DNA of 64,000 nucleotides from an uncultured bacterium. GTDB lineage: Bacteria; Krumholzibacteriota; Krumholzibacteriia; Krumholzibacteriales; Krumholzibacteriaceae. Below are positions 1 through 41,942 of this stretch, one piece after another. A model generated the notes under the pieces. That model did no database searches, had not been told where the DNA came from, and saw nothing but the letters and a program-made list of their open reading frames with translations. The first letter of the stretch is position 1, and the number at the start of each line of letters is the position of its first letter. The stretch covers positions 7,393 to 71,392 of the forward strand of contig CAZPAH010000001.1 of assembly GCA_964584495.1 (NCBI GenBank), in the 5' to 3' direction. The position numbers were made by a program, and so were the translations under genes.

Positions 1-860
1 ATCCTCGCGTACCCCGTAACCTGGCAGGAGTCCCAGGAGCTGATCCTGCTGAAATGCTCCCCTCCCTCTTTACGGTCATAGAGAAGGAAGCAGTAGCATG
101 TCGGGCAGATATTCGTGCAGGCCCCGCATTCCACGCAACGGGCCGCCTCGGTCGTCCAGATCGCATCGGTCAACATCTCCCTCAACGGTTCGGTCATCGC
201 CGACGCCTCAGGGAAATCCTTGTTGTTCTTCTCGAGCTCCTCTATCACCTTCGCGCGGATCTCGTCCCTCGCCTTCGCCTGCCCTTCGCGGGGCTCGGTG
301 AAGAGATCCGAGTTTTCCTCAATAATCTTCTCGCCCCTCGGCGAGCCGGCCTCCACCAGGCACCCTCCGCCTATCTTCGAGATATTCAGATCGTAGCCCT
401 TCTCCGGGAAAGGCCTGTTACCGATTAGGTTGCAGAAGCACGACCGCGAGCATTCGGAGCAATCGGCGGAGATCACGATCATCTTGTCCCTGCGTATCTT
501 GTAGAACGGATCGGTGAATTCCCCCTCGATCTGGACCTTATCGACCAGATCCATGGCGTACAGGTCGCATGCCTTGGCCCCGACCACCACGAAAGTGGGG
601 CAACTTTCATCAGGTTCCAGCTCGTCCCCCGCGTCCGAGGGATATTCGGCCACCTTGGTCCGAAGAAGCTGAGCGAAACCCTTCAGAGTCTCGACCGTCC
701 TGTATCCGTCGAACGCCGTGCCTTCGGGAAGGGGGAAGGATTCGGCCCTCTCCAGGTGGAGCTTCCCCGAATCTTCGTCCCGCACCGGCACAAAAAGCTC
801 CCCCTCGCTGGAGAGCTTTTTCAAAAGCCTCTCGAAATTTGTCGAATCGATAAAACGCAT
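1..860 (-). CDS. 4Fe-4S cluster protein, AsrA/HydB-like (anaerobic sulfite reductase subunit A / sulfhydrogenase beta-like); runs off window start (3' partial)
   Basis: Own minus-strand translation from ATG at 858-860: MRFIDSTNFERLLKKLSSEGELFVPVRDEDSGKLHLER... stays open to position 1. C-terminal part read so far has CVECGACTNICPTCYCF Cys cluster. Absent from ORF track because no stop lies inside the window. Plus-strand ORFs 54..428, 98..301 and 115..396 are its antisense shadows. Confidence 0.55.
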   Translation of the reverse strand, partial: MRFIDSTNFERLLKKLSSEGELFVPVRDEDSGKLHLERAESFPLPEGTAFDGYRTVETLKGFAQLLRTKVAEYPSDAGDELEPDESCPTFVVVGAKACDLYAMDLVDKVQIEGEFTDPFYKIRRDKMIVISADCSECSRSCFCNLIGNRPFPEKGYDLNISKIGGGCLVEAGSPRGEKIIEENSDLFTEPREGQAKARDEIRAKVIEELEKNNKDFPEASAMTEPLREMLTDAIWTTEAARCVECGACTNICPTCYCFLLYDRKEGGEHFSRISSWDSCQVTGYAR

Positions 861-1070
861 CAATATCTTTTCTGTTTTTGAGTTGCCCGCCGCCATTCAT
901 GCGGCATACCTATTCGACTTATGACGCATTTTCAGCGCCGGAACAGAAGCAATCTTCCATAGTTCTGTAAAAGTGTCAAGGTAATTTTTTCAAATTTTTT
1001 ACGGAAGGTGCCGAGGGCCCGGCGTCGTCGGTCGCATGCCGCCCGGAGCCTGTTTTCGTGGCGAATCTCC

Positions 1071-2000
1071 TTACATCCCGTCCGTCTTCTCGGCGAGCAG
1101 CACCTTCACCTTCTCCTCGAGCGCTTTTCCCCGCAGGTTCTTGAACCTGATCTTCCCCTCGCGGTCCAACAGGAAAGTGGCCGGTATGGAGCTTATTGCG
1201 TAGACCTGCCCGACATGAGACTGCCACCCCTTTCCGTCGAACACCTGCCTCCAGGTTATCCTGTTCTCGGCTATATAGCTTTTCAGCCTCGCGCCGTCGT
1301 TATCCAGAGATATGCCCACTATCTCGAAGCCTTGTTTCCCGTACTCGGCGTATACCCTTCTGACGTTCGGCATCTCTTGTCGGCAGGGCGAGCACCAGGT
1401 CGCCCAGAAATCCAGAAGAACGACCTTGCCCCTGTATTTCGAAAGCGTCAGCTCCTTCCCGTCCAGGGCCGTCGCCGAAAAATCTATCGCCGGCGAGCCC
1501 ACGACGAGCTTCTTCAATGTACCTATCCTGGAAAGCGCCATCCGCGAAACCTGAAGGATCCTGGGATCGACATTCTCCCCGGAGGCAAGCTTTTCCATCT
1601 CCGCGCGGGCCTTGTCGAACTCCTCCATGCCGAGATAGATGTCTCCGAGGGTATACCGCGCCGCCGCTTCGTCGCTCCGGGATTTCTCGTAGGAGGCGGC
1701 CAAATACGATTCGAGATGTTTAATCGCCTCCCCGTTTCTTCCCGTTTCCCTATACAGCTGCGCAAGATTCAGCTCGGCGTTTCCGCGCGCTCCAGAGCCC
1801 GGATATTTCCCGATGAATTCGAGCAGGGATCTTTCGGCGAATCCTATAAATTCCTCCGACGGCATCGCTTTCTGTTTCCTTCCTAGCTCGGCCAGGAGCT
1901 TCTCGAGCTCGGCGCCCGCCTCGTCATTGGCGGCCATGGCCGCGGCCGCCAATGAGGCGGCAAGGGCGAAGAATACTATCAAAGATACTGCCTTGCGCAT
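1071..2000 (-). CDS. TlpA-like thiol-disulfide oxidoreductase (thioredoxin fold, WCSPC active site) with N-terminal signal peptide and TPR-like region
   Basis: Signal peptide MRKAVSLIVFFALAASLAAAAMA; TPR-like helical N-domain; C-terminal redoxin domain with LLDFWATWCSPCRQEMP motif. Confidence 0.8.
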   Translation of the reverse strand: MRKAVSLIVFFALAASLAAAAMAANDEAGAELEKLLAELGRKQKAMPSEEFIGFAERSLLEFIGKYPGSGARGNAELNLAQLYRETGRNGEAIKHLESYLAASYEKSRSDEAAARYTLGDIYLGMEEFDKARAEMEKLASGENVDPRILQVSRMALSRIGTLKKLVVGSPAIDFSATALDGKELTLSKYRGKVVLLDFWATWCSPCRQEMPNVRRVYAEYGKQGFEIVGISLDNDGARLKSYIAENRITWRQVFDGKGWQSHVGQVYAISSIPATFLLDREGKIRFKNLRGKALEEKVKVLLAEKTDGM

Positions 2001-2077
2001 ATTTCCTTCCTTTCAATAGACCGGGGTGCACCGTTATCACGGCGCACCCCAACATTCGAAAAATTATTCTAATACGG

Positions 2078-2896
2078 CTATTGCCCGGCGCTTACGACCC
2101 TGACCGAACCGCGGACGAGAACCTCTATCTTCTCGTACCCTTTGTAGTTCGTATAGAAGGTCAGAGTTTCAACATACTTCCCCGTCTCGGAGGGGGGCCT
2201 TACCTGGACCTTGCACTGGAACGCCTTGCCGGGTTTTATCTCCCTGACGTTGACGGTGATATTCTCGCTGCTGGGAACGACCTTGAGCACCTTTAGCGAA
2301 TCGCCCCTCGACGCGATGATCGATACCATCTTCTCGAAAGACTTGCTGGTACCCTCGGGCACCTGCATCTCGCGTATGAACAACACGTTGGGCTGCACTT
2401 CCACGTCGGGCATTATGACAATCCTTACGGGCACCTCTTTTTCGGAGACCCTTTCGAAGTTGGACTTCACTATCAGATTCACCAAATAGTTCCCGGGGGG
2501 TATGTCCCCCTTAGAGCTTATCTTTATCCTGTACTTGCGCCCCGCCTCGATCGTCTCGAGATCGGCTTTCAGCTTGTCGATAAGTATCTCGGAATCCTTG
2601 CTCTTCTTGGACCATTCAAGTCCGGTAAGGTTCACCGGATCATCGATGGTTATCGTGACGATCGATTCCATGTCGATCTTCTCGTCCACGAATCCGTTGA
2701 AATTGAGATTCCTCGAGAAGTTAAAGACCCTCTTTACCATTCCGGAGACATTGAGGACGACTCTTGCGTTATCGGGGTCGTTGGTCTTCACCGTGAAATT
2801 CTTGCTGAAATGCCCCGGCGAAATCTTGTGTCCCAATATATTGACGAATATTTTTCCTTCCTTCCCGGGAAGGATGACCTTATCGAAGTCGGCCAC
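2078..2896 (-). CDS. DUF1573 domain protein, C-terminal segment (GTG start in ORF track); continues in frame from 2906..3151 across a TGA
   Basis: Translation after the TGA reads GCSVADFDKVILPGKEGKIFVNI, matching the DUF1573 core (SCGCTVPEWP...PGEEGEIKVTF) from its second residue onward. Confidence 0.55.
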   Translation of the reverse strand: MADFDKVILPGKEGKIFVNILGHKISPGHFSKNFTVKTNDPDNARVVLNVSGMVKRVFNFSRNLNFNGFVDEKIDMESIVTITIDDPVNLTGLEWSKKSKDSEILIDKLKADLETIEAGRKYRIKISSKGDIPPGNYLVNLIVKSNFERVSEKEVPVRIVIMPDVEVQPNVLFIREMQVPEGTSKSFEKMVSIIASRGDSLKVLKVVPSSENITVNVREIKPGKAFQCKVQVRPPSETGKYVETLTFYTNYKGYEKIEVLVRGSVRVVSAGQ

Positions 2897-2905
2897 GGAG
2901 CAGCC

Positions 2906-3151
2906 TCACCCAGGGCGAACGTTAAGTATTTGCAGCTCATCCGTCCCGTTGTTGCGTATCACGAAAGTATATTTGATGTCGGTGCCCTCGAAGAAATCGC
3001 CCAAGTCGACATTCTTGCTCTTGACGAACATCTTCGGCCCGCCTTTCGCGCTGGCGCTGCCGATAAGGCCCGACGCCAGGGCGATCAGGACGAAGACGGC
3101 GATTAATCCGATTGCTCTTGGGCTGCAGAGATTCTTCATTTTTTCCTCCAA
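2906..3151 (-). CDS. DUF1573 domain protein, N-terminal segment (signal peptide plus first half of DUF1573 motif), ending at in-frame TGA 2906-2908
   Basis: Signal peptide MEEKMKNLCSPRAIGLIAVFVLIALASG; then FVKSKNVDLGDFFEGTDIKYTFVIRNNGTDELQILNVRPG, which matches the DUF1573 consensus up to the residue before the CGC motif. Confidence 0.55.
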   Translation of the reverse strand: MEEKMKNLCSPRAIGLIAVFVLIALASGLIGSASAKGGPKMFVKSKNVDLGDFFEGTDIKYTFVIRNNGTDELQILNVRPG

Positions 3152-3501
3152 TTAAACAAACCCCAAACCCCGCCGGGGAACCTTTTCCTTTCCCGGTCGT
3201 TACCGCCAGGGGGGTTCGGGATATTCACCGTACGGTTTACTATTATAAAAAAAAGGCGGGTGACAGTTCCAGAAAAAAATAAAAGAACGTTTCGAAGGGC
3301 GCCGATATGTCGGCCTTATTCCCTTTTAGTTGAACCTTCCCCCCTTTTTTCTTTTAATTGCCGCGGTTTTTCTGTAGATTATCCCTGGCACCGGGATAAA
3401 TGCATCCGCTTCGCGCGGACCTGCCCTGCGCCGTACGCCCGCAGGGCTTCCGGTGGGAGACCCCGGCCGGCGGCGGAGATTTGTATAAAAGGAGTTGCGA
3501 G

Positions 3502-4089
3502 ATGCCTCTTTACAGCGACAAGGTAATGGATCATTTCATGAACCCGAGAAACGTCGGCGAGCTCGATCTCCCCGACGGAGTCGGCGAGGTCGGAAATCCG
3601 GTCTGCGGGGACATGATGACTTTCATGATAAAGGTCGAGGACGACAGGATCAAGGATGTCAAGTTCAAGACGTTCGGCTGCGGCGCTGCTATCGCCGTCT
3701 CGAGCATGGTCAGCGAGATCGCGATCGGGAAAACGCTCGATGAGGCCATGGCGATCACGAACGATATGGTGGCCGAAGAGCTCGGCGGCCTCCCTAAGAA
3801 CAAGATGCACTGCTCCAATCTCGGCGCGGACGCCCTGCATAAAGCGATCGAGAACTACAGGGAAAGATTGAAAACAGGGGAGCCGGCACCCAAGCCGACG
3901 AGCCATCCGGTGGAGAATAAGGACGAAACCTGCCCGTTCTGCGACGCCGAGATCGAGGATTCCCTCCCCTTCTGCAAATCGTGCAAGACGGAGCTCTTCC
4001 GCTGTCCCGAATGCGGCATGGTGGCCGACAGGTCGAAGGACTCCTGTCCCCACTGCGGGGCGCGGCTGAGCCCGGCCGACGGGAAATAA
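3502..4089 (+). CDS. NifU/IscU-type Fe-S cluster scaffold protein with C-terminal double zinc-ribbon extension
   Basis: MPLYSDKVMDHFMNPRNVGE...GNPVCGDMM...HCSNLGADAL matches IscU/NifU N-domain; AAAGGAG RBS at 3489-3495 supports ATG 3502 over the longer ORF from 3400; C-terminal CPFC...CKSC...CPEC...CPHC. Confidence 0.85.
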   Translation: MPLYSDKVMDHFMNPRNVGELDLPDGVGEVGNPVCGDMMTFMIKVEDDRIKDVKFKTFGCGAAIAVSSMVSEIAIGKTLDEAMAITNDMVAEELGGLPKNKMHCSNLGADALHKAIENYRERLKTGEPAPKPTSHPVENKDETCPFCDAEIEDSLPFCKSCKTELFRCPECGMVADRSKDSCPHCGARLSPADGK

Positions 4090-6453: not shown

Positions 6454-7404
6454 TCAGCCGGGTCCGGCGTGGAGCTCCTCGATCTCGTAGCTGTACCCCG
6501 CCTCTATCCTCGTTTTTCCGCCAAGGTAATTTCCTATAAGCTGCCCGCAGTTGCTTCCTATATGGTTCTCCTCGAGCTCCCCGATGCTGAGAACGACCCG
6601 GTACCCTGCCTCCTCGAGAGAAGATATAATCCTCTCTCCTTCTTCCCCCGGAAGCGGCAGGCCCCTCACGCCGCTCTCCCGGGCCCGCCCGGTAGGATTC
6701 ACCGGCGTTATCTTCACGATGAAGACCGAGGGATCGAAGTGGCGGAGAAGCTCCTCCGCGCTGACAGGCATCCTCTCGGCAAGGGCGAAGTTCAGCGACA
6801 CCTTCCTCCCCCCTCCTCCGTAGATCCTCTCTCCGTAACGCGCGATCCTCTCGAGGGACCACTTCGGCGTCGGTATGAGCCAGTCGCGCATACGTCGGTC
6901 GGTGGTGTGAACCGAAAATTGGATCTGGAAGCTTTCCGCGTACAGTTCCCTTTTGATATCGAGCAGCCGGTCGAAGAAACGGCACTTTCCCTCGGGGGCT
7001 ATTGTAGATATCGCCGGCATCAGCCCCGGGGCATCGTACCTGCCTGGAAGGCTCTCGAGAATATCGAGGACCGCCTCGTTATAGGACGGCTCCCCCATCC
7101 TTGCGAACTGGATCTTGAATTTCTCCACCGGCACTATGCGGTCGGGGAAGCGTCCGGCTACCATGTAATCGATCTGCGCCGCCATCTCGTCGGCCGAAAG
7201 TCTGCCACGGTAAGAGTCCGCCGCATCGCAGAATCTGCACCGGCACGGGCAGCCGTACAGGGTCGATACTATCAGCACCCATTTTCTCTCCCTCGGGATC
7301 GGCGGCTGCACCGACTCCACGAACTCGATATGCCTTCCGTTGGAACCTTCCGCCATGTATACCGTGGCGATATCTTCCCTTCCCGCCTTTGCCCTTACCT
7401 TCAA
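6454..7404 (-). CDS. RlmN/Cfr-family-like radical SAM enzyme (short form lacking the N-terminal accessory domain)
   Basis: IATVYMAEGSNGRH...LIVSTLYGCPCRCRFC (CxxxCxxC), RMGEPS, ISTIAPEG and C-terminal NCGQL all align with RlmN/Cfr landmarks (ETVYIPE, CVSSQVGCALECKFC, GMGEP, STSG, ACGQL); start overlaps upstream gene stop by 4 nt. Confidence 0.65.
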   Translation of the reverse strand: MKVRAKAGREDIATVYMAEGSNGRHIEFVESVQPPIPRERKWVLIVSTLYGCPCRCRFCDAADSYRGRLSADEMAAQIDYMVAGRFPDRIVPVEKFKIQFARMGEPSYNEAVLDILESLPGRYDAPGLMPAISTIAPEGKCRFFDRLLDIKRELYAESFQIQFSVHTTDRRMRDWLIPTPKWSLERIARYGERIYGGGGRKVSLNFALAERMPVSAEELLRHFDPSVFIVKITPVNPTGRARESGVRGLPLPGEEGERIISSLEEAGYRVVLSIGELEENHIGSNCGQLIGNYLGGKTRIEAGYSYEIEELHAGPG

Positions 7405-8363
7405 GCCTTTCCTCCCGGCGCCGATCCATCGTCCCTTTTCCGGTGACGGCGGCCGCCATTTAAATACGCGTAAATATTCATCGCGGCACGCATGCCGTCA
7501 CCGACCGCTATCGATACCTGCCTGCTCCTTCCATTTACGACATCGCCTACTAGATGGAGGCTCCCCGCGCCGACCAGCGAATCGACAAGCCCCTTGACCC
7601 CGGGACCGAGAAACGAAACGCAGGGATCCCTACCAACGGCGAAAAGGAGGGCGTCGGCCGCCAGCTTCCGGCTTCCGGCCGGCCCGCTCAAGCCTAGTAT
7701 CAGCCTCTCCCGCTTTCCGGAGCCGGCCTTCGAGACCCCGAGCAGCCCGGCGCCCGCCATCACCGAGATCCTCGCATTCTCCTCGCACCTGCGAAGAAGC
7801 ATGGGCAGGCACTTTGGCGAACTGCTCCTGCAGACTACGGTGACATCGTTGCGCCGGGAGAGTGAAAGGGCGTAATCGAAAGCTGCGTCCCCTCCCCCGA
7901 TGACGGCGACCTTCATTCCTTCCCCTGAAAGGAGCGGACTGGCCTCGAAGTGCACCGCTCCCACTACCTCCCCGGGCAGCTCGAGTCCCGGCGCTTTCGC
8001 ACCCCTCGTCCCCGAGGCTATCACTGCAACGGAAGTCTCCAGCACGCCCCTTTGCGTAACGGTTCTGAAAAAACCGCCGCCGTACTCGAGCGAGACTACC
8101 TCTTCCGTTCGCAGGCGGGCTCCGGAGCTTTTCAGCTGGGCGGCAAAGAGCGCGGCAAGCTCGCACCCCCTGATTCCGCCGGGAAATCCCGGATAATTTT
8201 CCACCAGATATGCGTTGGCGACGAGTCCTCCGGGCGCGCCCCCGTCGAAGACGGTCGTCTCGATACCGAAACGCGAAAGCTGAACGGCGGCCGTTATCCC
8301 GGCCGGCCCGGCACCGATCACGGATACCCTCGCCGCAGCCTTCTCCGGCTCGCGCCCCCCCAC
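7401..8363 (-). CDS. NAD(P)/FAD-dependent oxidoreductase (thioredoxin-reductase-like flavoprotein)
   Basis: VIGAGPAGITAAV Rossmann motif near N-terminus, second nucleotide-binding motif VAVIGGGDAAFDYA; start placed at in-frame GTG just after the isochorismatase stop, since the ORF track's longer N-extension overlaps the upstream gene. Confidence 0.6.
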   Translation of the reverse strand: MGGREPEKAAARVSVIGAGPAGITAAVQLSRFGIETTVFDGGAPGGLVANAYLVENYPGFPGGIRGCELAALFAAQLKSSGARLRTEEVVSLEYGGGFFRTVTQRGVLETSVAVIASGTRGAKAPGLELPGEVVGAVHFEASPLLSGEGMKVAVIGGGDAAFDYALSLSRRNDVTVVCRSSSPKCLPMLLRRCEENARISVMAGAGLLGVSKAGSGKRERLILGLSGPAGSRKLAADALLFAVGRDPCVSFLGPGVKGLVDSLVGAGSLHLVGDVVNGRSRQVSIAVGDGMRAAMNIYAYLNGGRRHRKRDDGSAPGGKA

Positions 8364-8364
8364 A

Positions 8365-9045
8365 TCAACCCCCTCCCCCACCGCCCAGGGCGATCTCTTT
8401 CTCAAGACCTTCCACGATGTGGCGGCACAGGACGGGATCTGCGAATCCGTGCGACAGGTTGCGCAGCGATGCCAGATGGAAATCCTCGTTATAGGTGGCC
8501 GTTCCATCGATCGGCATCAGAACGCCGAATCCCCTGACGAAAGCCGAGCGTGCCGTCGTCTCGCAGCAAAGATGGGTCATGACCCCCGTAATCACAACCT
8601 GCTCAACCGCCCTCTCGCGAAGCCTCTCTTCGAGGTTCGTCCCGAAGAAAGCATCGTACTGAGTTTTTATTATCGTCTCGGTTCCGCCTATGATCAGCTC
8701 CGGGTCGAGCCCCGAGAGACCTCCGCCCTCCTCTATTATATCGCTCCACCAAACTCCGAGCATCCCGGCGTCCTTCTTCGTGTTCAAGTGCCGCGTCAGG
8801 ATGACGGGCAGTGAGGCTTGAAGGTAGAGGAGTATGAGCTCTTTTATACGCGGCAGGATCGCCGGTCCGCTGGGAACGAAGGCGTGGGATGCTCCGTCGA
8901 GGAAGTACCGCTGCATGTCGAGAACGAGCAGGGCCGAGCGGCCGGCGACGAACCCCAACCGTTCTCTCCCTTGCTTCTCCAATTTTCCGAGAATCCTCGA
9001 AGCCGCACCGTCTATATCTTCTCCTGTGAAATATTTCTCTTTCAT
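8365..9045 (-). CDS. isochorismatase-family cysteine hydrolase
   Basis: LLVLDMQRYF...VITGVMTHLCCETTARSA matches isochorismatase/cysteine-hydrolase fold with catalytic Cys. Confidence 0.75.
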   Translation of the reverse strand: MKEKYFTGEDIDGAASRILGKLEKQGRERLGFVAGRSALLVLDMQRYFLDGASHAFVPSGPAILPRIKELILLYLQASLPVILTRHLNTKKDAGMLGVWWSDIIEEGGGLSGLDPELIIGGTETIIKTQYDAFFGTNLEERLRERAVEQVVITGVMTHLCCETTARSAFVRGFGVLMPIDGTATYNEDFHLASLRNLSHGFADPVLCRHIVEGLEKEIALGGGGGG

Positions 9046-9051: not shown

Positions 9052-10515
9052 TCATGCAAGCGGGGGAAGACTGTCCATCCCCGCATCCTTAGCTTCCCTC
9101 CCGATGATCTCCGCAAGCCTCGATTCCACGGCCCGGTCTAGCCGCTCCGGCTCGTGCTTCTCGAGGATCCCTTCCACCACCACGGCGGCGCGGGCCGCGG
9201 CGTCCTTTTTGCCGCCCGCGTGCCATTCATCGAGCGATCCTCTCTCTATGACCTCGCCGGGGATGTAAACCTCCCGCCTGTACCATTTCCTTGTATGCGG
9301 CAGGGAGAGAAACTCCTTCTTCTCGAGCCCCTCGATAATATACGGCATCGCCAGCAGATCGTCCCTCAGCTCGACCCCATCGCACAGCCTGAGGGCCATT
9401 CCGCAGATCTCGTTATCGAGGACCAGCTTCTCCAGGGACTGGCACGACTCGAAATCGAGCATCCCCGGGCCCGAAATATTATTCACTCCGGAGACCGCGG
9501 CGACTATCGCCCCCATCGCCGTCTCCATCCCCGCCTGAAAATCGACGGTCTTCGAATCGCTGAGCGCCATGTAAGCGTGGGTCGGCAGGCCGAGGTACTT
9601 TCCGATCTCGGCATACGCCCCGTCTATCATCATCGTCTCTATCGCCCCCATCGGCGTCGTTCCCTTGCGCATGTCGAAACAGGCCGGCGAGCCTCCATAT
9701 ATTATCGGAGCTCCCGCCGATGCGAGCTGGTGGATCGCTATCCCGCTGAGATTCTCGGCGCAATGCTGCGTCACCGCCCCGGCGAGGGTCACGGGCGATG
9801 TCGCTCCTGTAAGGGGCATCGAGACCAATTCGGCCGGAAGCCCCGACTTCGCGCAATCGATCAGCGCCTGGCATGTCAGATCGCTCCACATCAGCGGGGG
9901 AGAGGGGCAGCAGTCGAATATCGCCATCGGTTTTTCCCGGAGCTTTGAGCCTCCTCCCGCGACGGTGGAAAGCATCTCGTGCATTACGCCGAACGCTTCC
10001 ACCTTGAACGTTCCCGTCACCACCGGCTTGATAGAATGGAGAAGCGCTATATAGAGCCTGTACCTGTCCGCTATATCCTCCGGAACGTCGCCCGGTATCA
10101 CCCCGGTAGACTGCGCAGCGTAGCCCGGGAGGGCGTCGGTCAGCGTGGCGAATTTCACAAGGTCCGCCGTAACGGGCATTCGCGCCTCCCCCTTTTCGTG
10201 GTCGAAAATCCTGAGGGCGGCCGATCCGGGATTGAAATGGATCCTGTCCCCTCCGAGATCCATCACCTTCTCGCCGCGCCTGTTATAGAGGGCGACCTCC
10301 GAGGGCGCAGTGCCCAGCCCCTTTTCCACAAGGTCCGCCGGTATCCGAACCCGCCCCTTTTTCCCCTCCACCTTTCCCCCCGCGCCATCCAGAAGCGCGA
10401 TCGCCTCTTCGTTCTCGACGAAGATCCCCACCTTCTCCAGGATCGTCACCGCCTCTTCTACTATTCTCCTCCTCTCCGCCTCTCCAAACCATCCGACACG
10501 CGGTCTAACGCTCAT
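9052..10515 (-). CDS. MttB-superfamily (trimethylamine methyltransferase-like, non-pyrrolysine) corrinoid-dependent methyltransferase, likely quaternary-amine:corrinoid methyltransferase
   Basis: Full-length ~487 aa TIM-barrel MttB family similarity; no in-frame amber codon. Confidence 0.8.
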   Translation of the reverse strand: MSVRPRVGWFGEAERRRIVEEAVTILEKVGIFVENEEAIALLDGAGGKVEGKKGRVRIPADLVEKGLGTAPSEVALYNRRGEKVMDLGGDRIHFNPGSAALRIFDHEKGEARMPVTADLVKFATLTDALPGYAAQSTGVIPGDVPEDIADRYRLYIALLHSIKPVVTGTFKVEAFGVMHEMLSTVAGGGSKLREKPMAIFDCCPSPPLMWSDLTCQALIDCAKSGLPAELVSMPLTGATSPVTLAGAVTQHCAENLSGIAIHQLASAGAPIIYGGSPACFDMRKGTTPMGAIETMMIDGAYAEIGKYLGLPTHAYMALSDSKTVDFQAGMETAMGAIVAAVSGVNNISGPGMLDFESCQSLEKLVLDNEICGMALRLCDGVELRDDLLAMPYIIEGLEKKEFLSLPHTRKWYRREVYIPGEVIERGSLDEWHAGGKKDAAARAAVVVEGILEKHEPERLDRAVESRLAEIIGREAKDAGMDSLPPLA

Positions 10516-10542
10516 CCGGCGCCTCTCTTTCCTTTCAACAAT

Positions 10543-11214
10543 TCAATCCGTCCTGTACCGGCACGATTCGATGTCGCAGTTTCTGCACGAGTTCTCGCTT
10601 CTCAACCTCGCCGGATTCTTCGATATGTCTATCGCGAAAGATACCGATTTGCGCGGTATCATCATCCCGCTTTCCGACAACGAAACGCCGATCCTTTCCG
10701 CCGGTAGAAGCTCGAAGATAGCCCTCTGCTCCCCGATGTCCCAGTTTCCATACCCCGGGCTGGCCCTGCACGATGTTTTCAACCCCTCCCCGGCCGCCTC
10801 CTCTTTTATCCTGTCGTCCATATACCCGGCCACCGCTTCGGCGGCCACCGATCCGGCCGAATCCAGCACTACCGCCTTTACGAGCTCGCCCGAATCGGCC
10901 AGCTGCGTGACCATCCTCTCCAGCTTTTCTCCTATCGTGCAGACGCAGAATGCGACCTTCTCCAGCCGTTCGAATATGGTGGATCCCGGCAGGTCCCTGC
11001 CCGCCGTCACCTTGTAAATCCCTTTCGGCTCGATCAGGTCGAGGGCCGCAAGGACCGCTTCATCCACCTCTCTTCTCACCCTGGCGCCGTGGCGCGCCAT
11101 CACACCCTTGCTGCTTCCGAGAAGCCGAGCCATCTCGATCCGGTCTATATCGATCTTGAACCTCTCCAGGATTACCGGCTCCATATCTTCATCTTCCCGC
11201 CCCGGACAGGGCAT
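10543..11214 (-). CDS. methionine-synthase (MetH) reactivation/AdoMet-binding domain protein, stand-alone
   Basis: RASPGYGNWDIGEQRAIFELLPAERIGVSLSESGMMIPRKSVSFAI aligns with MetH activation-domain core ([22 protein letters not shown]...LTESFAMWPGASVSGWYF). Confidence 0.7.
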   Translation of the reverse strand: MPCPGREDEDMEPVILERFKIDIDRIEMARLLGSSKGVMARHGARVRREVDEAVLAALDLIEPKGIYKVTAGRDLPGSTIFERLEKVAFCVCTIGEKLERMVTQLADSGELVKAVVLDSAGSVAAEAVAGYMDDRIKEEAAGEGLKTSCRASPGYGNWDIGEQRAIFELLPAERIGVSLSESGMMIPRKSVSFAIDISKNPARLRSENSCRNCDIESCRYRTD

Positions 11215-12094
11215 CCCGCACCGCCGCGATGAAACGGGGATCGGTGCCGCAGCATCCTCCCACCGCGTTCGCCCCGGCTTCGACGATCTTCATCATGTCC
11301 GAGGCGAAATCCCTCGGCTCCTGCCTGTAGAATGTCTTTCCATCATCGATCTCCGGCAACCCGGCGTTAGGCTGGAAGAGGAGCGGCGTCTCCGTCAGCG
11401 ATCTGAACCTTCCGGCTAGGGGCACCATGTCCCCGCTCGAGATGGTGCAGTTGGCCCCTATCATCTCGGCTCCTTCCGGCGGCAGGGCTTCCGCCGCCCT
11501 CTCGGGCGTATCCCCCACGAGGGTGAAATACCCCCGCGGCTTGAGGGCGAAGGTCAGCTCTACAATAACCGGCTTGTCCGACACCTCCTTCACCCCTCTC
11601 AGCGCCTCGATCGCCTCCCTCATGTCGTACATCGTCTCCACGAGGAAAAGATCCACACCCCCCCGATCGAGGGCCTCCGCCTGCTCCCTGAAAGCCTCCC
11701 TTGCCTCGGCTGCGGCCAGCTTCCCCATCGGCGCGAAGAATTCCCCGGTGGGTCCTATATCGCCGGCCACGAAACGGCCGGCCGCGCCGTAATCGTCGAC
11801 CGCCTTTCTCGCCAGAATCGCCGCCTTCTCGTTGACGGCGGCCGCATCCATTTCTCTTCCCGCGGCGGAGGCGGACATCTTGATCCTGTTGCCCCCGAAG
11901 CTGTTCGTCTGTATCACTTCGGCCCCCGCCTCGAGGTAAGCCCCGTGTATAGCGGAGATATCGCCCGGCCGATCGATATTCCACCTCTCCGGGATATCCC
12001 CCTCGCCCAGGCCGGCCGCTATAAGCATGGTTCCCATACCGCCGTCGAACAGGATCACCTTCCTCTTCGAAATTTCCCTGTATCCGTTCTCCAT
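11189..12094 (-). CDS. homocysteine S-methyltransferase domain protein (MetH N-terminal Hcy-binding module, Zn site GGCCGT)
   Basis: KVILFDGGMGTML...IQTNSF...NAVGGCCGTDPRFI are MetH Hcy-domain landmarks; ATG at 12094 preceded by GGAAGG RBS is preferred over the GTG at 12133. Confidence 0.75.
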   Translation of the reverse strand: MENGYREISKRKVILFDGGMGTMLIAAGLGEGDIPERWNIDRPGDISAIHGAYLEAGAEVIQTNSFGGNRIKMSASAAGREMDAAAVNEKAAILARKAVDDYGAAGRFVAGDIGPTGEFFAPMGKLAAAEAREAFREQAEALDRGGVDLFLVETMYDMREAIEALRGVKEVSDKPVIVELTFALKPRGYFTLVGDTPERAAEALPPEGAEMIGANCTISSGDMVPLAGRFRSLTETPLLFQPNAGLPEIDDGKTFYRQEPRDFASDMMKIVEAGANAVGGCCGTDPRFIAAVRDALSGAGR

Positions 12095-12138
12095 GACCTT
12101 CCCGCTCCCCCCGCGACTCGTTCGCGGCCGCACGCCCT

Positions 12139-12801
12139 TTACCCGTTACCCATCAATTCCCTTAAAAGCGAGACCGCCGATACCGCGTCTCCCGCGTACC
12201 CGTCCGCTCCGATCTCTTCGGCCCACTTCACGCTGCACGGCGCCCCCCCTACCAGCACCTTGACCCCTTTCCTCATCGACCGTTTGGAGAGCTCTTCAAT
12301 AACCCTCTTCTGCCCCGGCATCGTCGTCGTGAGCAGGGCTGAAACCGCTATGCAATCGGCCCCGATCTCTCCGGCCTCATCAACGAATCTGGCGACCGGG
12401 ACATCGGCGCCCAGGTCCTTGACCTCGAAGCCGTTCGCCGAGAGCATCGTCGAGACCAGCGTCTTGCCGATATCGTGGATATCGCCCTCTATCGTGCCTA
12501 TGACCACCTTTCCCGCACCCACGCGCCCGGTAGAGCCTTTTTCGAGCTCCGGCTGCAGGACAGCCATCGCCTTCTTCATCGCCTCCGCCCCCATCACAAG
12601 CTCGGGAAGGAAGAGCTCTCCTTCCTCCCAGAGCCTCCCGACCTCCCTTATTCCGGAGGCGAACCCGTTCTCGATAACCTCCAAAACGGGCATACCTCTC
12701 TCTATCGCGGCCCCGGCGAGCTCAACGGCTTTCTCCGCGTCTCCCTCGATAACCGCCCGCGAACATTTCTCCAGGTGTTCCTTCATCAGATCTTCCTCCA
12801 T
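12139..12801 (-). CDS. cobalamin-binding corrinoid protein (MtaC/MtgC-like; B12-binding cap plus Rossmann domain)
   Basis: DxHxxG motif EGDIHDIGK, GxxG and SAL motifs of B12-binding domain. Confidence 0.8.
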   Translation of the reverse strand: MEEDLMKEHLEKCSRAVIEGDAEKAVELAGAAIERGMPVLEVIENGFASGIREVGRLWEEGELFLPELVMGAEAMKKAMAVLQPELEKGSTGRVGAGKVVIGTIEGDIHDIGKTLVSTMLSANGFEVKDLGADVPVARFVDEAGEIGADCIAVSALLTTTMPGQKRVIEELSKRSMRKGVKVLVGGAPCSVKWAEEIGADGYAGDAVSAVSLLRELMGNG

Positions 12802-31667: not shown

Positions 31668-33895
<2,228 letters not shown>

Positions 33896-33972
33896 AAAGG
33901 GACCTCCGTCTGTATCGCCCGGTATCCGGATAGTAGCCTCAAACCGGATAAAAATAAATAAAAAAATCTGTA

Positions 33973-35100
33973 TTACAAGCCCTGTTTTCGGTCCGCGCTC
34001 ACCGCCGCCACGGCTCCCTCGGCGACCTCGAACGCCGCGTATTTTTCGATCTTTCCCGGAAAATCCTCTTTCCTCGGAGATGTGATGAAGCTTTGGTACC
34101 TGTCGGAGAGAAGCCCTCCCACGCGTGCAGCGGTGGCCGCATCCAGCTCGGAAAATATATCGTCCAGAAGAACGACCGGCCTTTCCGTTCTCCTATCCAT
34201 GATCGTCGAGGCCTGCGCCAGCTTCAGCACTATCGCCACAAGCCTTTTCCGTCCCTGCGACCCGTATCTCTTGAGGTCGGTGCCGCCCAGGAATATCGCG
34301 AGATCGTCATAGTGAGGCCCCGCCAGGGTGTACCCCCTCCTTTTCTCGGCTTCCCCGGACCTCGCCAGGGCTTCCTCGAGCGCCCTGCGATCGTTGATCC
34401 CTTCGGGGTTGTAGGAGGACCTGTATTCCATCTCCAGCCTCTCCCCCCCGCCGCGTATCTCCGAGTAGATCGCCCCCGCGCCTGCTCCTATCAGCCCCAG
34501 GATCTCCCTTCTCCCCCTGGCTACCGCCGTTCCTTTATCCACCATCATCGCGTTCCACGCCTCCAGCTCCCCCCCGTCCCTTCCCCCGCACGAGATTCTC
34601 TTCAACAGCCTGTTCCTGTGCCTCACTATCCTCCTATACTCCTTGAGATCCTCGAGAAAGGCGGGCGATATCTGCGCAGCCGTGTAATCCAGGTACACCC
34701 TCCTGCCCGCCGGCGGCCCAGCCGAAAGCCCTACATCGGCGGGCGTGAAAAGCACGGTGGGCATTATCCCTATGACCTCCGAAAGGGTGGAAAGGGTTTT
34801 TCCGTTAACCGAGGCCTTTGCGCGCCCCCCCCTCTCGTATCCTATCTCCAGGCGGAAATCTATCCCGGAGTCGCTTCTTCCCTTCAGCCTTATGAAGAAA
34901 TAGTCCTCGTCGAAGGAAACCAGCTCGTCCGTTCTTCTTGTTCTGAAAGATCTTCCTATGGAGAAAAAATGGATGGCCTCTAAGAGGTTGGTTTTCCCCT
35001 GGGCGTTCTCTCCGGTCACAAAATTGAAAGTGTCCGAAAATTCCAGGGATATCTTTTCAAGGTTCCTGAAATTTCCTGCATCCAACCCGCCGATGATCAC
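33973..35100 (-). CDS. recF: DNA replication and repair protein RecF
   Basis: Walker A GENAQGKTNLLEAI, signature and Walker B (VLLDDIFSELD). Confidence 0.9.
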   Translation of the reverse strand: MIIGGLDAGNFRNLEKISLEFSDTFNFVTGENAQGKTNLLEAIHFFSIGRSFRTRRTDELVSFDEDYFFIRLKGRSDSGIDFRLEIGYERGGRAKASVNGKTLSTLSEVIGIMPTVLFTPADVGLSAGPPAGRRVYLDYTAAQISPAFLEDLKEYRRIVRHRNRLLKRISCGGRDGGELEAWNAMMVDKGTAVARGRREILGLIGAGAGAIYSEIRGGGERLEMEYRSSYNPEGINDRRALEEALARSGEAEKRRGYTLAGPHYDDLAIFLGGTDLKRYGSQGRKRLVAIVLKLAQASTIMDRRTERPVVLLDDIFSELDAATAARVGGLLSDRYQSFITSPRKEDFPGKIEKYAAFEVAEGAVAAVSADRKQGL

Positions 35101-35132
35101 CCACGCTCACCACCCTCCCATGATTCTCTTCT

Positions 35133-36239
35133 TCAATTTATCCTCAACGGCATCACGATACAGATATGCTTCAGGTCCCCCCCTTTGTCCACCGGCTGAA
35201 CGATCCCGGCGTTGTCGGGTTTGTCGAGACGGATCTCGATCTCGTCGCCCTCCATCGTCCTCAGTATATCCTGGATATAAGAGGCATTATAACCTATATC
35301 CATCGGATCGGCCGAATACGAGGCCTCCAATTCTTCCCTGGCTTCACCGAGGTCCTGGGTGGTCACGTGGAGGGTGACCTTGTTCTTGTCCAGCGTGAAT
35401 ATAACCTGGTGCGTCAGTGCATCCGATAGTATGGAAACCCTCTTTGTAGCCGAGGAAAGGGCTTCCTTCGAGATCACCAGCTCCTTCTCGTTTCCCGCCG
35501 GTATAACCTTCTGGTAATTCGGGAACGGCCCCTCGAGAAGCCTGGAGTAGATCGAGACGTCCTTCATCGTGAATGATATGCTGTTCTCCCCGAGGCTCAC
35601 CTTTATCAATTCATCCTTCTCCGAGTACGACCTGAAGGTCGAGAGGGCCTTAGGAGGCACTATCACGCTTGTTTTCTGCACCCCCTTCATCTCTTTTCTC
35701 AAATCCACCTTTGCGAGCCTGTGCCCGTCCGTCGATACCATAACGAGCCCGCTCTTGTCCACATCCCACAGCACCCCACACAGGGCAGGCCTTGTAAGGT
35801 CGGTAGAAACCGCATAGACCGTCTTCTGAATAAGCTTTCCAAGTAGACCGGAATCTATCTCGAACTCCGTCTTGCTCTCCTGTTGAGGAAGCCTTGGGAA
35901 ATCATCGGGGTTCCTCCCGTTGACAACGAACCTGCTTTTCCCGCATACCAGTGATAGTTTTTCTCCATCAACCTCCATCACCACTTCCTCGCCCGAAAGC
36001 GACTTCACTATCTCCGCTATCTTCTTCGCCGGCGCCGCCACCTTCCCCTCTGCTTCGACCTTTCCGGCGATCTTCGAAGTAACCGATATGTCAAGATCCG
36101 TCGCGGAGAAACTTATCCCGGAGGAATCGGCGCCAACGAGAACCATCGAAAGTATCGGCATCGTCGTTTTTCCCGGAACAACCGACGATATCGCGTTCAT
36201 CTTCTTGTTGAGTTCTCCCAACGGCACGAGAACTTTCAC
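35133..36239 (-). CDS. dnaN: DNA polymerase III beta subunit (sliding clamp)
   Basis: Three-domain beta-clamp similarity, ends ...MPLRIN. Confidence 0.9.
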   Translation of the reverse strand: MKVLVPLGELNKKMNAISSVVPGKTTMPILSMVLVGADSSGISFSATDLDISVTSKIAGKVEAEGKVAAPAKKIAEIVKSLSGEEVVMEVDGEKLSLVCGKSRFVVNGRNPDDFPRLPQQESKTEFEIDSGLLGKLIQKTVYAVSTDLTRPALCGVLWDVDKSGLVMVSTDGHRLAKVDLRKEMKGVQKTSVIVPPKALSTFRSYSEKDELIKVSLGENSISFTMKDVSIYSRLLEGPFPNYQKVIPAGNEKELVISKEALSSATKRVSILSDALTHQVIFTLDKNKVTLHVTTQDLGEAREELEASYSADPMDIGYNASYIQDILRTMEGDEIEIRLDKPDNAGIVQPVDKGGDLKHICIVMPLRIN

Positions 36240-36608
36240 ACCGTTACCTCCTGATCATGATCTTTAATTAAAACCCTCACAAAAGCGCCCGGAATAATCA
36301 CGGAAAACGAATCATAGACAAAGAAGAAGGAATGTTCAAGCAAAAAGACCGGGCACCTCGAGCGGAGAAAAAGAAAGCCGGGAAAGGGGAATGAGGGAAC
36401 AGGGGAATACTACAGTTAATAATAAAAGTAATAGTAGTGGAAGTAGGGGGTGTTGAAATGTTGAAAGGTGTCGGGGGACCGGGCTGCGAAGCGCTGAAAC
36501 CGGAAATGGGGAATGTTGATTGGTATGTTGAGAGCCGCTTTTTTATCAACAGGATGGCGGGGGGAGGAAGGATATGAACATGATTCCAACAGGGAGTCAA
36601 CAGTGAGG

Positions 36609-36617
36609 TGTGGATAA
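36609..36617. promoter_or_regulatory. perfect consensus DnaA box (TGTGGATAA) in dnaA-dnaN intergenic region
   Basis: Exact 9-mer; adjacent AT-rich stretch 36411-36440 and near-box TTATCAACA at 36543-36551. Confidence 0.7.
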
Positions 36618-36638
36618 ATTGGGGAAGGCGAGAAGCCG

Positions 36639-38033
36639 TCACCTGCCGCCGAGCTCCTCGCGTATGGTCTGTATCTTTCTTCTGAGGGCGGGGTCTTCCT
36701 GGGATAGCTTGTCGATCTTCTTGATTCCGTGAAGGACCGTGCTGTGGTCTCTTCCGCCGAAACTTTTTCCAATTTGGACGAGAGAGTGGGAAGTGAGCTC
36801 CCGCGAAAGGAAGATCGCGACCTGGCGGGCGAGCACGACCCGGCTGATTCTAGTTTTGGCTTTGAGGCTGTCGGCCGGGATGTCGAAATATTGCGAAACC
36901 GCTTTCTGAATGTTCGGAATCGTGATCTTCTTTCTCGACGAATCTTTCATTAGGTCCCTGAGGACATCCATAGCCATATCGACCGATATCTCCCTGCAGT
37001 TTATGCTCGAGAATGCGAGGAGTCTTATTAGGGATCCCTCAAGCTCGCGGATATTGTTCTTCACGTTTTCCGCTACAAGCTGGATGACGTCATCGGGGAT
37101 GAGCTTGCGCTCGTTCTCGACCTTTTTTCTGAGTATCGCTATCCTGGTCTCCAAGTCGGGGGGCTGGATATCGGTAGTCAGGCCCCATTCGAATCTCGAG
37201 GTCAGCCTTTCCTGAAGGGCCGGGATATCTTTCGGCGGGCGGTCGCTGGTGCATACTATCTGCTTGTTGGCATCGTAAAGGGAATTGAAAGTGAAGAAAA
37301 ACTCTTCCTGGGTGCTTTCCTTTCCGGCGAGAAACTGGATATCGTCGATGAGAAGCATGTCGACGTCGCGATACCTCTTCTTGAATTCGTGCGTCGTTCC
37401 CTTTCTGATGGCGTGTATCAGCTCGTTGACAAAAGATTCAGTCGAAACATAGGAGATCCTCATCCCGGGATGCTCGTTGATTATGAAATGACCGACGGCT
37501 TGAAGCAGGTGAGTCTTGCCGAGGCCGGCGCCGCCGTATATGAAAAGGGGGTTGTAGATCCTTGCCGGTTTTTCGGCAACGGCCAGGGCGGCGGCGTGGG
37601 TAAGGCGGTTTCCGCTGCCGACGACGAATTCGCCGAATGTGTACCTTCCGTTCAGGTTTGCATTGCCGGGCGGAGCGATCGGTTTATTCTCGACTGTGGT
37701 GGGGGAGGAGGCGATCGTTTCGGTCCGAGTCACCCTGCCGGCCGCCGGCGAGGATGTGAACTCGACACTGACATCAGCCCCGATCGTGTCGCTGGCCGCC
37801 GACCGGATCTTGTCGATATGGTGCTCGGCGAGCCAATCGATAAAAAACGGGTTGGGTCCCTCTACAAGAAGGACGTCGTCCTCGAAGCTCAGCAACCTGG
37901 TCGGCTTGAACCAGGTCTGAAAAGACTGGGCGTTGACCGAATCGCCTATCTTCTCGAGGATCTTCTCCCAGGTCTGCCTCAAAAGGTCGGCATTCATCGA
38001 ATCTTCTCTTTTTCGGTTTTCTCCTGTATTCAT
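36639..38033 (-). CDS. dnaA: chromosomal replication initiator protein DnaA
   Basis: AAA+ Walker A GGAGLGKTHLL, sensor motifs, C-terminal DNA-binding domain IV. Confidence 0.95.
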   Translation of the reverse strand: MNTGENRKREDSMNADLLRQTWEKILEKIGDSVNAQSFQTWFKPTRLLSFEDDVLLVEGPNPFFIDWLAEHHIDKIRSAASDTIGADVSVEFTSSPAAGRVTRTETIASSPTTVENKPIAPPGNANLNGRYTFGEFVVGSGNRLTHAAALAVAEKPARIYNPLFIYGGAGLGKTHLLQAVGHFIINEHPGMRISYVSTESFVNELIHAIRKGTTHEFKKRYRDVDMLLIDDIQFLAGKESTQEEFFFTFNSLYDANKQIVCTSDRPPKDIPALQERLTSRFEWGLTTDIQPPDLETRIAILRKKVENERKLIPDDVIQLVAENVKNNIRELEGSLIRLLAFSSINCREISVDMAMDVLRDLMKDSSRKKITIPNIQKAVSQYFDIPADSLKAKTRISRVVLARQVAIFLSRELTSHSLVQIGKSFGGRDHSTVLHGIKKIDKLSQEDPALRRKIQTIREELGGR

Positions 38034-38552
38034 CGGCGCTTTCGGGGGGCACTCGCCCCGGGAAGCAATAACTCTTTTAAACTAGCCACGAGTTTCCCAC
38101 AATTGTGGATAACTCGGTATATTTTTCAGGTGCAACCTGTTGGGCGGGCCGCTTAATATGTTGATAGAGGGTTTTCCACATTCTCCCGGCGAGCGTGGCG
38201 GTTCAGGTGTAGGGTCCCGGGTGTGCGGCTCGAAAAATGGGAGACTCCCCTCATCCCGCGGACGGTAATGTATCATACGAGGTTTGGAGTATCAAGCATT
38301 ATTTACAAGGCGGGGGAAAATTTTTATAACTTGTTGGGATAACGTAACATAAAATGATAGATGTCCGGAAATTCCCTTTGGAGGACAGAAGGGGGCGGAG
38401 GGGCGGTGGGATAAGAAAACGGAAAGAGGATTGGACAAACAAGTTATCGAGCGGCGGCATAAAAGACTTGACAAGGCAGAACGCTTTTTCTATCGTGAGT
38501 TGTTTATGAATCGTCGAATGAACGATTAGAGCGAAAAAAGAAGAGGGCCATA
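38034..38552. other. candidate oriC (dnaA-rpmH intergenic region with DnaA boxes and AT-rich unwinding candidate)
   Basis: Perfect DnaA box 38104-38112 paired head-to-head with degenerate box TTTCCCACA via palindrome CCACAATTGTGG; TTTTCCACA at 38163-38171; AT-rich 38282-38350; gene orientation flips here. Confidence 0.65.
38104..38112. promoter_or_regulatory. perfect consensus DnaA box (TGTGGATAA)
   Basis: Exact 9-mer inside palindromic context ...TTTCCCACAATTGTGGATAAC... Confidence 0.75.
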
Positions 38553-38687
38553 ATGAAACGCACATATCAACCGCATAACAAGAGAAGAAAAAAGACTCAC
38601 GGATTCAGGAAAAGAATGAGCACTAAAAACGGTCAGATGGTCCTCAAAAGGAGGAGGGCAAGAGGTAGAAAGCGACTGGCCGTCTGA
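38553..38687 (+). CDS. rpmH: 50S ribosomal protein L34
   Basis: Own translation: [44 protein letters not shown] (44 aa); below ORF-track length cutoff; putative promoter TTGACA-17nt-TATCGT at 38467-38495. Confidence 0.9.
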
Positions 38688-38712
38688 TAGTCTCGAAAGA
38701 AGAAAAAGCCGG

Positions 38713-39060
38713 ATGGCTCCCAAGGGGTTGAAGAAGAGCTCGCAGTTCGGGGAAGTTTACAGGGACGGCCGGAGGGAAGCCGGCAAGAATCTCGTCATTT
38801 GCTATCTTATTAAAGAAGGCGAGGGTACAAGGGCCGGATTCGTGGCCAGCAGAAAAAAAGTTGGAAAGGCATATCAGCGAAACAGGGCGAAAAGGCTATT
38901 AAGGGAAGTATTCAGAAAGATAAATGACGGCATCATAGAGAAAGATATCTGGATCGTATTTATTGCTTCATTTCGCCCGGCGGAGACATCATTTCAGGAA
39001 TTACTAGAAGAAGCGAAATCCTCTCTGGCAAGAGCGGGAATAATATCAAGCGACGGATGA
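38713..39060 (+). CDS. rnpA: ribonuclease P protein component
   Basis: 115 aa basic protein, RNR-like motif [13 protein letters not shown], conserved position after rpmH. Confidence 0.85.
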
Positions 39061-39281
39061 TATCCAGAATTCTGACTGGAGTCGGCCTTGCGGCCGTCAG
39101 AATATACAGAATAGCTATCTCCCCGTACCACGGACCCGTCTGCAGATTTTACCCCTCCTGCTCAGAGTACGCGGAAAAGGCCATATCGATCCACGGCTTG
39201 CCAAAGGGCGGGCTGATGGCGATAAGGCGCCTCCTGAAATGCCACCCATTCGCAAAGGGCGGATACGACCCCGTTCGCTGA
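39057..39281 (+). CDS. yidD: membrane protein insertion efficiency factor YidD
   Basis: Conserved [16 protein letters not shown] motif, 74 aa, overlaps rnpA stop. Confidence 0.85.
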
Positions 39282-39326
39282 CATCGCTTTCCGAAAAAAT
39301 TAAACTAGACGGAAGGGATCCCGGGA

Positions 39327-41111: not shown

Positions 41112-41240
41112 GGCGGGAAAAAAACAACGTCGAGGAAAGGAAATATCCAGGGCCCGCATGGGGTCCAAGACGGGGAAGTATTATTGAAAGGGAATAAATC
41201 AATATTCAGAATATCTTACTAATAGAACGGGAGCGGAACC

Positions 41241-41939
41241 ATGGCACTGGGAAGGAGAACCGAGAAAAAGACGAAACAGGCGATCGAGGCCAGCGGCAAG
41301 ACCGTGGAGAAGGCCCTCGAAAAGGCGCTGAAATCGATGGGCGCGAAAGTGGAAGAGGTTGAGATTGAAATTATAGATCCCGGACAGAAGGGAGTTCTCA
41401 ACATCTTCGGGGCGCGGGAGGCGAAGATAAGGATCACTAGGAAAAAAGACTCCAAGGGGATCGAGGAGATAACAGACGAAGTGGCGAAGTCTATAATGAA
41501 TTGCCTCGACGTGAGCTACAGGATATTCGCCGACACGGTAGACGACACGACATACATAAATATAGAAACGGCGGGGGTGGACGGCCTGCTGATAGGCCGG
41601 AAAGGGGACACTCTCAATTCGCTTCAGCACCTCGTGGGAAGGATAGTTTCGCGTAGGATGGGCGGATACCAGAGGTTGACGCTGGATGTCGGCGGATACC
41701 TCAAGAACAGGCAGGAAATTCTGAAGCAGAAGGCGGTGAAGGCGGCGGAGAGAGCCCGGCAGACCAGCCGCGAGGTAAGCCTGGAACCGATGAAAGCCTC
41801 GGAAAGAAGGATAGTGCACATGGTGCTGGCCGAAGAGGAAGGCGTCACGACGTACACGGTCGGTAACGGCGAGATGCGGAAGGTCTTCGTCTCTCCGGTG
41901 AGAGGGACGGAGAAGAAGAGCCGGTTCAACAGAAGATAG
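41241..41939 (+). CDS. jag: Jag/KhpB-family RNA-binding protein (Jag_N, KH and R3H domains)
   Basis: Domain order and conserved position after yidC; R3H-like C-terminus. Confidence 0.8.
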   Translation: MALGRRTEKKTKQAIEASGKTVEKALEKALKSMGAKVEEVEIEIIDPGQKGVLNIFGAREAKIRITRKKDSKGIEEITDEVAKSIMNCLDVSYRIFADTVDDTTYINIETAGVDGLLIGRKGDTLNSLQHLVGRIVSRRMGGYQRLTLDVGGYLKNRQEILKQKAVKAAERARQTSREVSLEPMKASERRIVHMVLAEEEGVTTYTVGNGEMRKVFVSPVRGTEKKSRFNRR

Positions 41940-41942
41940 AGC

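Follow-up and report, generated by a model that had tools for sequence, protein, structure and literature searches.

Does an in-frame TGA codon in the genome of an uncultured member of the Krumholzibacteriota terminate a gene, or is it read as selenocysteine (Sec)? The codon occupies positions 2906-2908, on the minus strand, of a 64,000 nt stretch of contig CAZPAH010000001.1 (GenBank assembly GCA_964584495.1), to which we refer as the window. It separates two open reading frames (ORFs) of 81 aa (2906..3151) and 272 aa (2078..2896), which a first-pass annotation had proposed to be parts of one selenoprotein gene with a DUF1573 domain. Our analysis leads to the same conclusion, which we hold at roughly 90%: UGA 2906-2908 encodes Sec in one exported protein, U-G-C replaces C-G-C, and RNA hairpins downstream of the codon direct the recoding.

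Reading of the sequence confirmed that the two ORFs share one frame. The codons around the TGA are GAG CTG CAA ATA CTT AAC GTT CGC CCT GGG TGA GGC TGC TCC GTG GCC GAC, and translation in this frame gives ...ELQILNVRPG-TGA-GCSVADFDKVILPGKEGKIFVNI. Apart from the TGA, the ORFs are separated by just three codons (GGC TGC TCC), followed by a GTG which ORF finders take as a start codon. Judged from the sequence, the likelier start of the gene is ATG 3139-3137, which is preceded, five bases away, by GGAGG (3149-3145). A single gene running from 3139 to 2078 would encode an exported protein of the DUF1573/OS_HP2 type with three Ig-like domains, in which decoding of the UGA as Sec would yield U-G-C instead of the C-G-C of the family. 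In tblastn comparisons, relatives align right across the TGA, over query residues about 1-349. When all TGA codons of the window were screened for coding signal on either flank, 2906-2908 was recovered; two other sites were rejected, one as an ordinary boundary between genes and the other as an antisense frame.

When Cys is substituted for the stop, the match to PF07610 (DUF1573) crosses the TGA, which sits at a Cys column of the domain (77 bits against a cut-off of 26.1; profile positions 3-98 of 98). The proposed coincidence of the TGA with a conserved Cys is thus borne out, and it is also seen in direct comparison: full-length Cys orthologues read VKPGCGCSVADFDK, the window VRPG-TGA-GCSVADFDK. 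The top match in NCBIfam is NF041425, "OS_HP2 family (seleno)protein" (E = 2.4e-27, profile positions 4-98 of 98).

The first-pass annotation is therefore mistaken in stating that DUF1573 is new as a selenoprotein family. As early as 2007, OS_HP2 appeared in Table 2 of a survey of the Olavius algarvensis symbionts (Zhang & Gladyshev; PMC1976440), and two reviews tabulate a "DUF1573 domain-containing protein" (pfam07610, motif UGC) among the selenoproteins (PMC9312934; PMC13188914). The window protein is a slightly divergent additional member of this known family. It has the same PF07610 domain, the same Sec column (first Cys of CGC) and the same U-G-C motif, and it shares an RNA hairpin downstream of the UGA (hairpin 2, see below) with sequences that pass the NF041425 cut-off. 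It differs in its score, which, like that of its Krumholzibacteriota orthologues, falls slightly short of that cut-off. With a curated cut-off of 100 bits, the window protein reaches 95.1 bits and P0009, a Krumholzibacteriota orthologue with Cys, reaches 93.9 bits, compared to 112-137 bits for Desulfobacterota, 109 bits for Latescibacterota and 100.5 bits for Blastocatellia Sec forms with the same UGA column and hairpin 2 (maximum 136.9). The Krumholzibacteriota forms also carry two additional Ig-like domains, for an overall length of 353 aa; three Desulfobacterota forms were checked, of which two have about 230 aa and one has 345 aa. Finally, the Krumholzibacteriota genes stand in a conserved pair with a gene for a TPR and TlpA-like protein. 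Since earlier work had established the family, its U-G-C motif and this kind of recoding, the additions made here are modest: the pairing with the TlpA-like gene, a layout with two hairpins, and the distribution in Krumholzibacteriota.

The codon found at the Sec column was compared among homologues. A protein database search returned 69 of these, and the DNA was taken from one genome per species, giving 77 loci. About three dozen of the closest homologues are products of about 270-278 aa (ca. 76% query cover) which start just past the TGA column; a few of the 69 are full-length (349-377 aa). Products of 270-278 aa that begin after the column are a typical annotation artefact for a Sec gene. 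At the DNA level, 45 copies from 43 GTDB species genomes have TGA in the column and 38 copies have TGC or TGT, while TAA and TAG do not occur. The second Cys of the motif is never TGA in the fetched loci. Both TGA- and Cys-containing orthologues thus exist, with coding sequence conserved on both sides of the column, and the TGA forms come from at least four phyla (Table 1). One of them belongs to a cultured isolate, Desulfoferrobacter suflitae DRH4 (L029; TGA at locus position 6235, within ...QQVRPG-U-GCAVAHFDR), and three are from metagenome-assembled genomes (MAGs) that were submitted as whole chromosomes (L006, L027, L030). Relatives with whole-chromosome records include CP070727.1, CP070631.1 and CP070677.1. 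The TGA forms are between 55% and about 25% identical to the window protein in amino acid sequence; the codon has thus been kept despite great divergence.

Sec and Cys paralogues stand side by side in eight loci (L016, L020-L023, L025, L028, L032). In many relatives the tandem paralogues are about 1.1 kb apart, usually with one TGA and one TGC copy. Locus L020 has three copies (TGA at 5080, TGC at 6250, TGA at 7370); two Sec copies are present in L039.

Because the TGA is conserved across such diverged homologues and is never exchanged for TAA or TAG, it is very unlikely that we are dealing with a sequencing error, a pseudogene or two independent genes. An error of sequencing or assembly, or a pseudogene with a nonsense mutation, might be suspected because the window stems from a metagenome-type assembly and the 272-aa product has just one database copy, a singleton on a single contig of 89,574 bases, but its probability is negligible given a TGA in the same frame in 45 homologues of 25%-55% identity, from independent projects and including an isolate, with the protein conserved on both sides.

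A true stop codon would imply two products, namely an exported peptide of 81 aa (77 aa from the ATG) and a 272-aa protein translated from GTG 2896. The sequence GAGG, found 7 nt ahead of that GTG, could serve as its ribosome binding site, and gene callers as well as database records consistently give a product of about 270 aa. However, this GAGG lies within UGAGGC, that is, it consists of the UGA and the codon of a conserved Gly, and the supposed start codon specifies the conserved Val of S-V-A. Such a split would also cut one Ig-like DUF1573 domain in mid-sheet and deprive the larger part of a signal peptide, whereas the Cys homologues are continuous single proteins. We consider two separate products highly improbable.

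An RNA structure within the coding sequence just past the UGA, chiefly hairpin 2, probably directs the recoding. RNA positions are counted from the U of the UGA. In an alignment of 31 Krumholzibacteriota and related Sec forms, RNAalifold independently predicted two adjacent hairpins (Table 1), with 99.1% of cells paired in register compared to 35%-59% in slid registers; for hairpin 1, all cells (100%) are paired in this set. When all 46 Sec forms are considered, hairpin 2 alone keeps its register, with 95.1% of cells paired (slid registers: 45%-69%). Compensatory variation is seen at its pairs 38-51 (C-G 30, U-A 10, A-U 2) and 39-50 (U-A 40, G-U 2). None of 500 shuffles matched the observed pairing or covariation score of hairpin 2; the shuffles ignore phylogeny. 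In the switch from U-A to C-G, a Leu/Pro replacement is accompanied by a synonymous change between GAA and GAG, and the A-U/G-U variant comes with a different peptide (QPGQVG) while the stem is retained. In other phyla, the register of hairpin 1 differs from that in Krumholzibacteriota. In the Desulfobacterales, it is formed from very different sequences, GUCUCG-UACA-CGAGAC (L072) and UGCCUC-CUACAC-GAGGCA (L076), directly preceding the same hairpin 2 in both; these comparisons of hairpin 1 rest on alignment by eye.

The hairpins are largely lost in the Cys forms even where the amino acid sequence is kept. The mean number of pairs in Sec versus Cys forms is 5.7 versus 2.6 of 6 for hairpin 2, and 5.0 versus 2.9 of 6 for hairpin 1. 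Synonymous positions that are invariant in the Sec forms vary in the Cys forms; the Val, for example, is encoded by GUG in every Sec form and by GUC in most Cys paralogues. One Cys paralogue (L023:5776-5835) is unlike the other Cys forms, with 6/6 pairs in hairpin 1 and 4/6 in hairpin 2. From its sequence, it may represent a recent Sec-to-Cys conversion.

The first-pass annotation had pointed to a palindrome (2860-2873) as a possible part of a selenocysteine insertion sequence (SECIS). The palindrome is real and overlaps the conserved hairpin 2, but its self-complementary pairing is not the conserved register. As a stem it is ruled out by orthologues with CCCUCC...GGAGGG and CCAGCC...GGUUGG, the conserved register being positions 36-41 with 48-53.

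Published rules for bacterial SECIS (bSECIS) elements call for an upper stem of 4-16 bp, a loop of 3-9 nt, and a minimum free energy (MFE) of −7.5 kcal/mol or lower; the loop has a G within the first two positions followed by G or U, and the spacing from the UGA to the loop is 16-37 nt for most elements (PMC13188914). Hairpin 2 resembles the bSECISearch model (PMC13188914, Fig. 2) in that it lies within the coding sequence past the UGA, with a 6-bp stem, a 6-nt loop with G-G at loop positions 2-3, and an MFE of −7.6 kcal/mol when folded alone. It differs in that the spacer is filled by a separate hairpin, hairpin 1, for which the spacing suits the model while its 11-nt loop does not. With its 6-bp stem and loop C-G-G-N-N-N, hairpin 2 would correspond to the apical hairpin type of a bacterial SECIS that SelB would bind.

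Several results weigh against the reading of the UGA as Sec or against parts of it. The spacing of hairpin 2 is 38 nt (RNA 4-41), one more than the 16-37 nt of the model. Single-sequence folding of the region past the UGA was no better than that of shuffles (z = −1.07 and −0.16), so that the case for an RNA structure is made by comparative data only. Of the comparative data, the covariation and shuffle controls do not take phylogeny into account, and most stem columns lie within conserved codons (P-P-G-x-E-G), so that part of the pairing conservation could reflect constraint on the protein. Neither a selenocysteine tRNA (tRNA-Sec) nor selA, selB or selD was found within the window (ARAGORN; Pfam on 51 window ORFs). 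We found no protein-level evidence for selenium in the DUF1573/OS_HP2 family in the literature consulted. The redox partner proposed below is drawn only from gene neighbourhood. An Rfam scan of 2700-3000 with permissive E-values gave only two matches, at chance level and to unrelated families. ARAGORN detected no tRNA-Sec in 30 fetched loci, and tblastn with an Escherichia coli SelD sequence found no match in the window and all loci. Because the sequence searched (window plus loci) is too small, we did not count the absence of Sec machinery against the use of Sec. A literature search for a link between Krumholzibacteriota and selenocysteine returned incidental mentions only and no paper that connects the two.

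With no Sec machinery in the window, the UGA might alternatively be read as a standard amino acid without involvement of selenium, either as Trp or Gly by an alternative genetic code or as Cys or Trp by near-cognate read-through. However, UGA serves as the stop codon in 32 of 50 called genes and does not interrupt long ORFs of the window, which excludes an alternative code such as 4 or 25. The UGA at 2906-2908 is the single one in the window with coding signal on both sides. Leaky read-through would need no hairpin, whereas a conserved hairpin specific to the Sec forms follows this UGA. We thus attach very little probability to a standard amino acid and continue with Sec at this position.

Table 1. 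Features of the selenoprotein locus, with window coordinates, and loci with TGA forms of the gene
Feature	Position	Strand	Details
Selenoprotein read-through coding sequence	2078..3139	minus	353 codons plus TAG stop (2078-2080)
Predicted signal peptide	3047..3139	minus	MKNLCSPRAIGLIAVFVLIALASGLIGSASA then KGG; hydrophobic core and A-S-A
DUF1573/OS_HP2 Ig-like domain with U-G-C	2735..3025	minus	residues 39-135
UGA, proposed Sec codon	2906..2908	minus	residue 77; aligned to first Cys of CGC
Hairpin 1	2874..2896	minus	RNA 13-35; stem GUGGCC / GGUCAU; 11-nt loop
Hairpin 2, probable SECIS core	2856..2873	minus	RNA 36-53; stem CCUUCC (2873-2868) / GGAAGG (2861-2856); loop CGGGAA
TPR and TlpA-like thioredoxin/redoxin, exported	1071..2000	minus	WCSPC; matches to AhpC-TSA, Redoxin, Thioredoxin_8, TPR
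4Fe-4S protein	1-896	minus	ATG at 896; runs off the window start
NifU/IscU	3400-4089	plus	divergent from the selenoprotein gene
TGA forms, Krumholzibacteriota			L001-L025
TGA forms, Latescibacterota			L027, L030
TGA forms, Blastocatellia/Acidobacteriota			L031-L034, L038, L039, L041, L045, L056, L058
TGA forms, Desulfobacterota			L026, L029, L072, L076

The N-terminus of the read-through product resembles a signal peptide, and on this basis the protein is probably exported. A structure model of the full-length Cys orthologue P0009 has three beta-sandwich domains and a mean predicted local distance difference test score (pLDDT) of 88.5; its N-terminus is disordered (residues 1-34, pLDDT below 50). 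In this model, the CGC region forms a turn between strands 75-82 and 87-91 (mean pLDDT of the 10-residue block: 94). Foldseek with the P0009 model returned generic tandem ASH/Ig domains (ciliary HYDIN-type proteins, cadherins, titin), so the fold gives no functional clue. The sole match of a sequence search against the PDB is weak and is also to HYDIN.

The gene for the TPR and TlpA-like protein starts 77 nt past the selenoprotein stop codon. Of 30 related loci, 24 have this gene immediately after the Sec gene, with Latescibacterota among them. Between the two genes of the window there is a G+C-rich inverted repeat (2020-2047, minus strand; GGGGTGCGCCG-TGATAA-CGGTGCACCCC) which is not followed by a T-run; it might serve as a stabiliser or attenuator between the cistrons. 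A promoter and terminator scan of 600-3500 gave results at chance level.

Redox proteins had been named as neighbours in the first-pass annotation. This holds for the TlpA-like protein and for NifU/IscU; the third is a 4Fe-4S protein, the family of which is assigned only via an orthologue in locus L001 that matches Fer4_22. The 4Fe-4S gene follows the TlpA-like gene in most Krumholzibacteriota loci. A stretch containing TTGACA precedes its ATG in the window, so that it may be transcribed separately. In L001 (8429-12645), the 4Fe-4S gene is followed by genes for an FAD/NAD-binding oxidoreductase, a molybdopterin oxidoreductase and a 4Fe-4S ferredoxin. NifU and NadA are encoded upstream of the selenoprotein gene, on the opposite strand.

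This neighbourhood suggests a redox function. Sec77 and the Cys two residues on (Cys79) would form a reversible selenenylsulfide on a protein of the periplasm or envelope, and the adjacent TPR and TlpA-like thioredoxin would reduce and thereby recycle it. We regard this model, the basis of which is gene neighbourhood, as plausible at somewhat below even odds. Redox-active CxC and vicinal Sec-Cys centres include CGC peptides that act as mimics of disulfide isomerase and the GCUG end of mammalian thioredoxin reductase. Judged from the P0009 model, the U-G-C of the window would resemble these in placing two chalcogens, with one Gly between them, on an inter-strand turn. It differs from them in that there is no relation in sequence or fold, the motif being located on an Ig-like (ASH/HYDIN-type) beta-sandwich.

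If Sec is accepted, U-G-C might instead be a site for a metal or metalloid, for example Cu(I), Hg or As, with the TlpA-like protein merely keeping this site reduced. Some selenoprotein families from the same surveys are metal-related (YHS, MerT-like, CobW-like), and proteins of the TlpA type reduce the copper sites of Sco and CoxB. The L001 orthologue of the TlpA-like protein reaches the SCO1-SenC model at its cut-off (22.8 bits). No genes for metal transport or resistance were found adjoining the selenoprotein gene in the window. The present results do not separate metal binding from redox chemistry, and we consider a metal site a rather unlikely but reasonable explanation.

Returning to the redox function, a more far-reaching proposal can be made tentatively, and we would not expect it to hold in all its parts. 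The Krumholzibacteriota proteins might be a distinct branch of DUF1573 selenoproteins, with three Ig-like domains, that curated models and pipelines have missed. They would act with the TPR and TlpA-like thioredoxin in a selenol/thiol relay of the envelope, and would be recoded by a two-hairpin SECIS with its SelB-binding loop beyond the usual spacing. Neither a TPR-TlpA partner module nor a two-hairpin SECIS layout was found in the literature consulted.

Other features of the window are noted here. The neighbourhood of a chromosomal replication origin spans 33578-38033 on the minus strand (dnaA, dnaN, recF, a DciA-family gene, gyrB, gyrA) and 39057-49187 on the plus strand (divergently oriented yidD, yidC, jag, mnmE, mnmG, rsmG, parA, parB). 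The gap of roughly 1 kb between dnaA and yidD (38034-39056) could hold oriC and rpmH/rnpA. Four genes at 9052-12801 (minus strand) code for an MttB-family methyltransferase (487 aa, an uninterrupted ORF), a protein resembling the MetH activation domain, a protein with a homocysteine S-methyltransferase domain and a B12-binding corrinoid protein; this cluster looks like a non-pyrrolysine methyl-transfer system of the MttB type. At 7401-8507 (minus strand) there is an ORF of 368 aa for a pyridine nucleotide-disulfide oxidoreductase resembling thioredoxin reductase. It shares 143 nt with the 3′ end of the isochorismatase-family ORF that precedes it (8365-9045, minus strand), for which reason its true start is probably further in. 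The adjoining ORF of 316 aa (6454-7404) has only a weak radical-SAM match.

The main value of the finding is a corrected annotation. Public entries such as P0002, P0003, P0020 (UCF06823.1), P0023, P0041 and about 35 more are hypothetical proteins of about 270-278 aa which start at the Val just past the TGA. This looks like a systematic truncation of the selenoprotein in annotations of Krumholzibacteriota MAGs, and a possible reason is that proteins from this clade score just below the NF041425 cut-off. The gene is split in the window, and in dozens of public genomes the record of about 270 aa loses the signal peptide and half of the first domain; restoring the Sec codon yields the correct exported protein. 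The current understanding of Sec recoding is unchanged by this finding. For the organisms, it means that Krumholzibacteriota probably use selenocysteine, and for the family, the pairing with the TlpA-like gene and the comparison between Sec and Cys paralogues, in which the hairpin is present or missing, provide testable leads on the role of the DUF1573 CxC motif.

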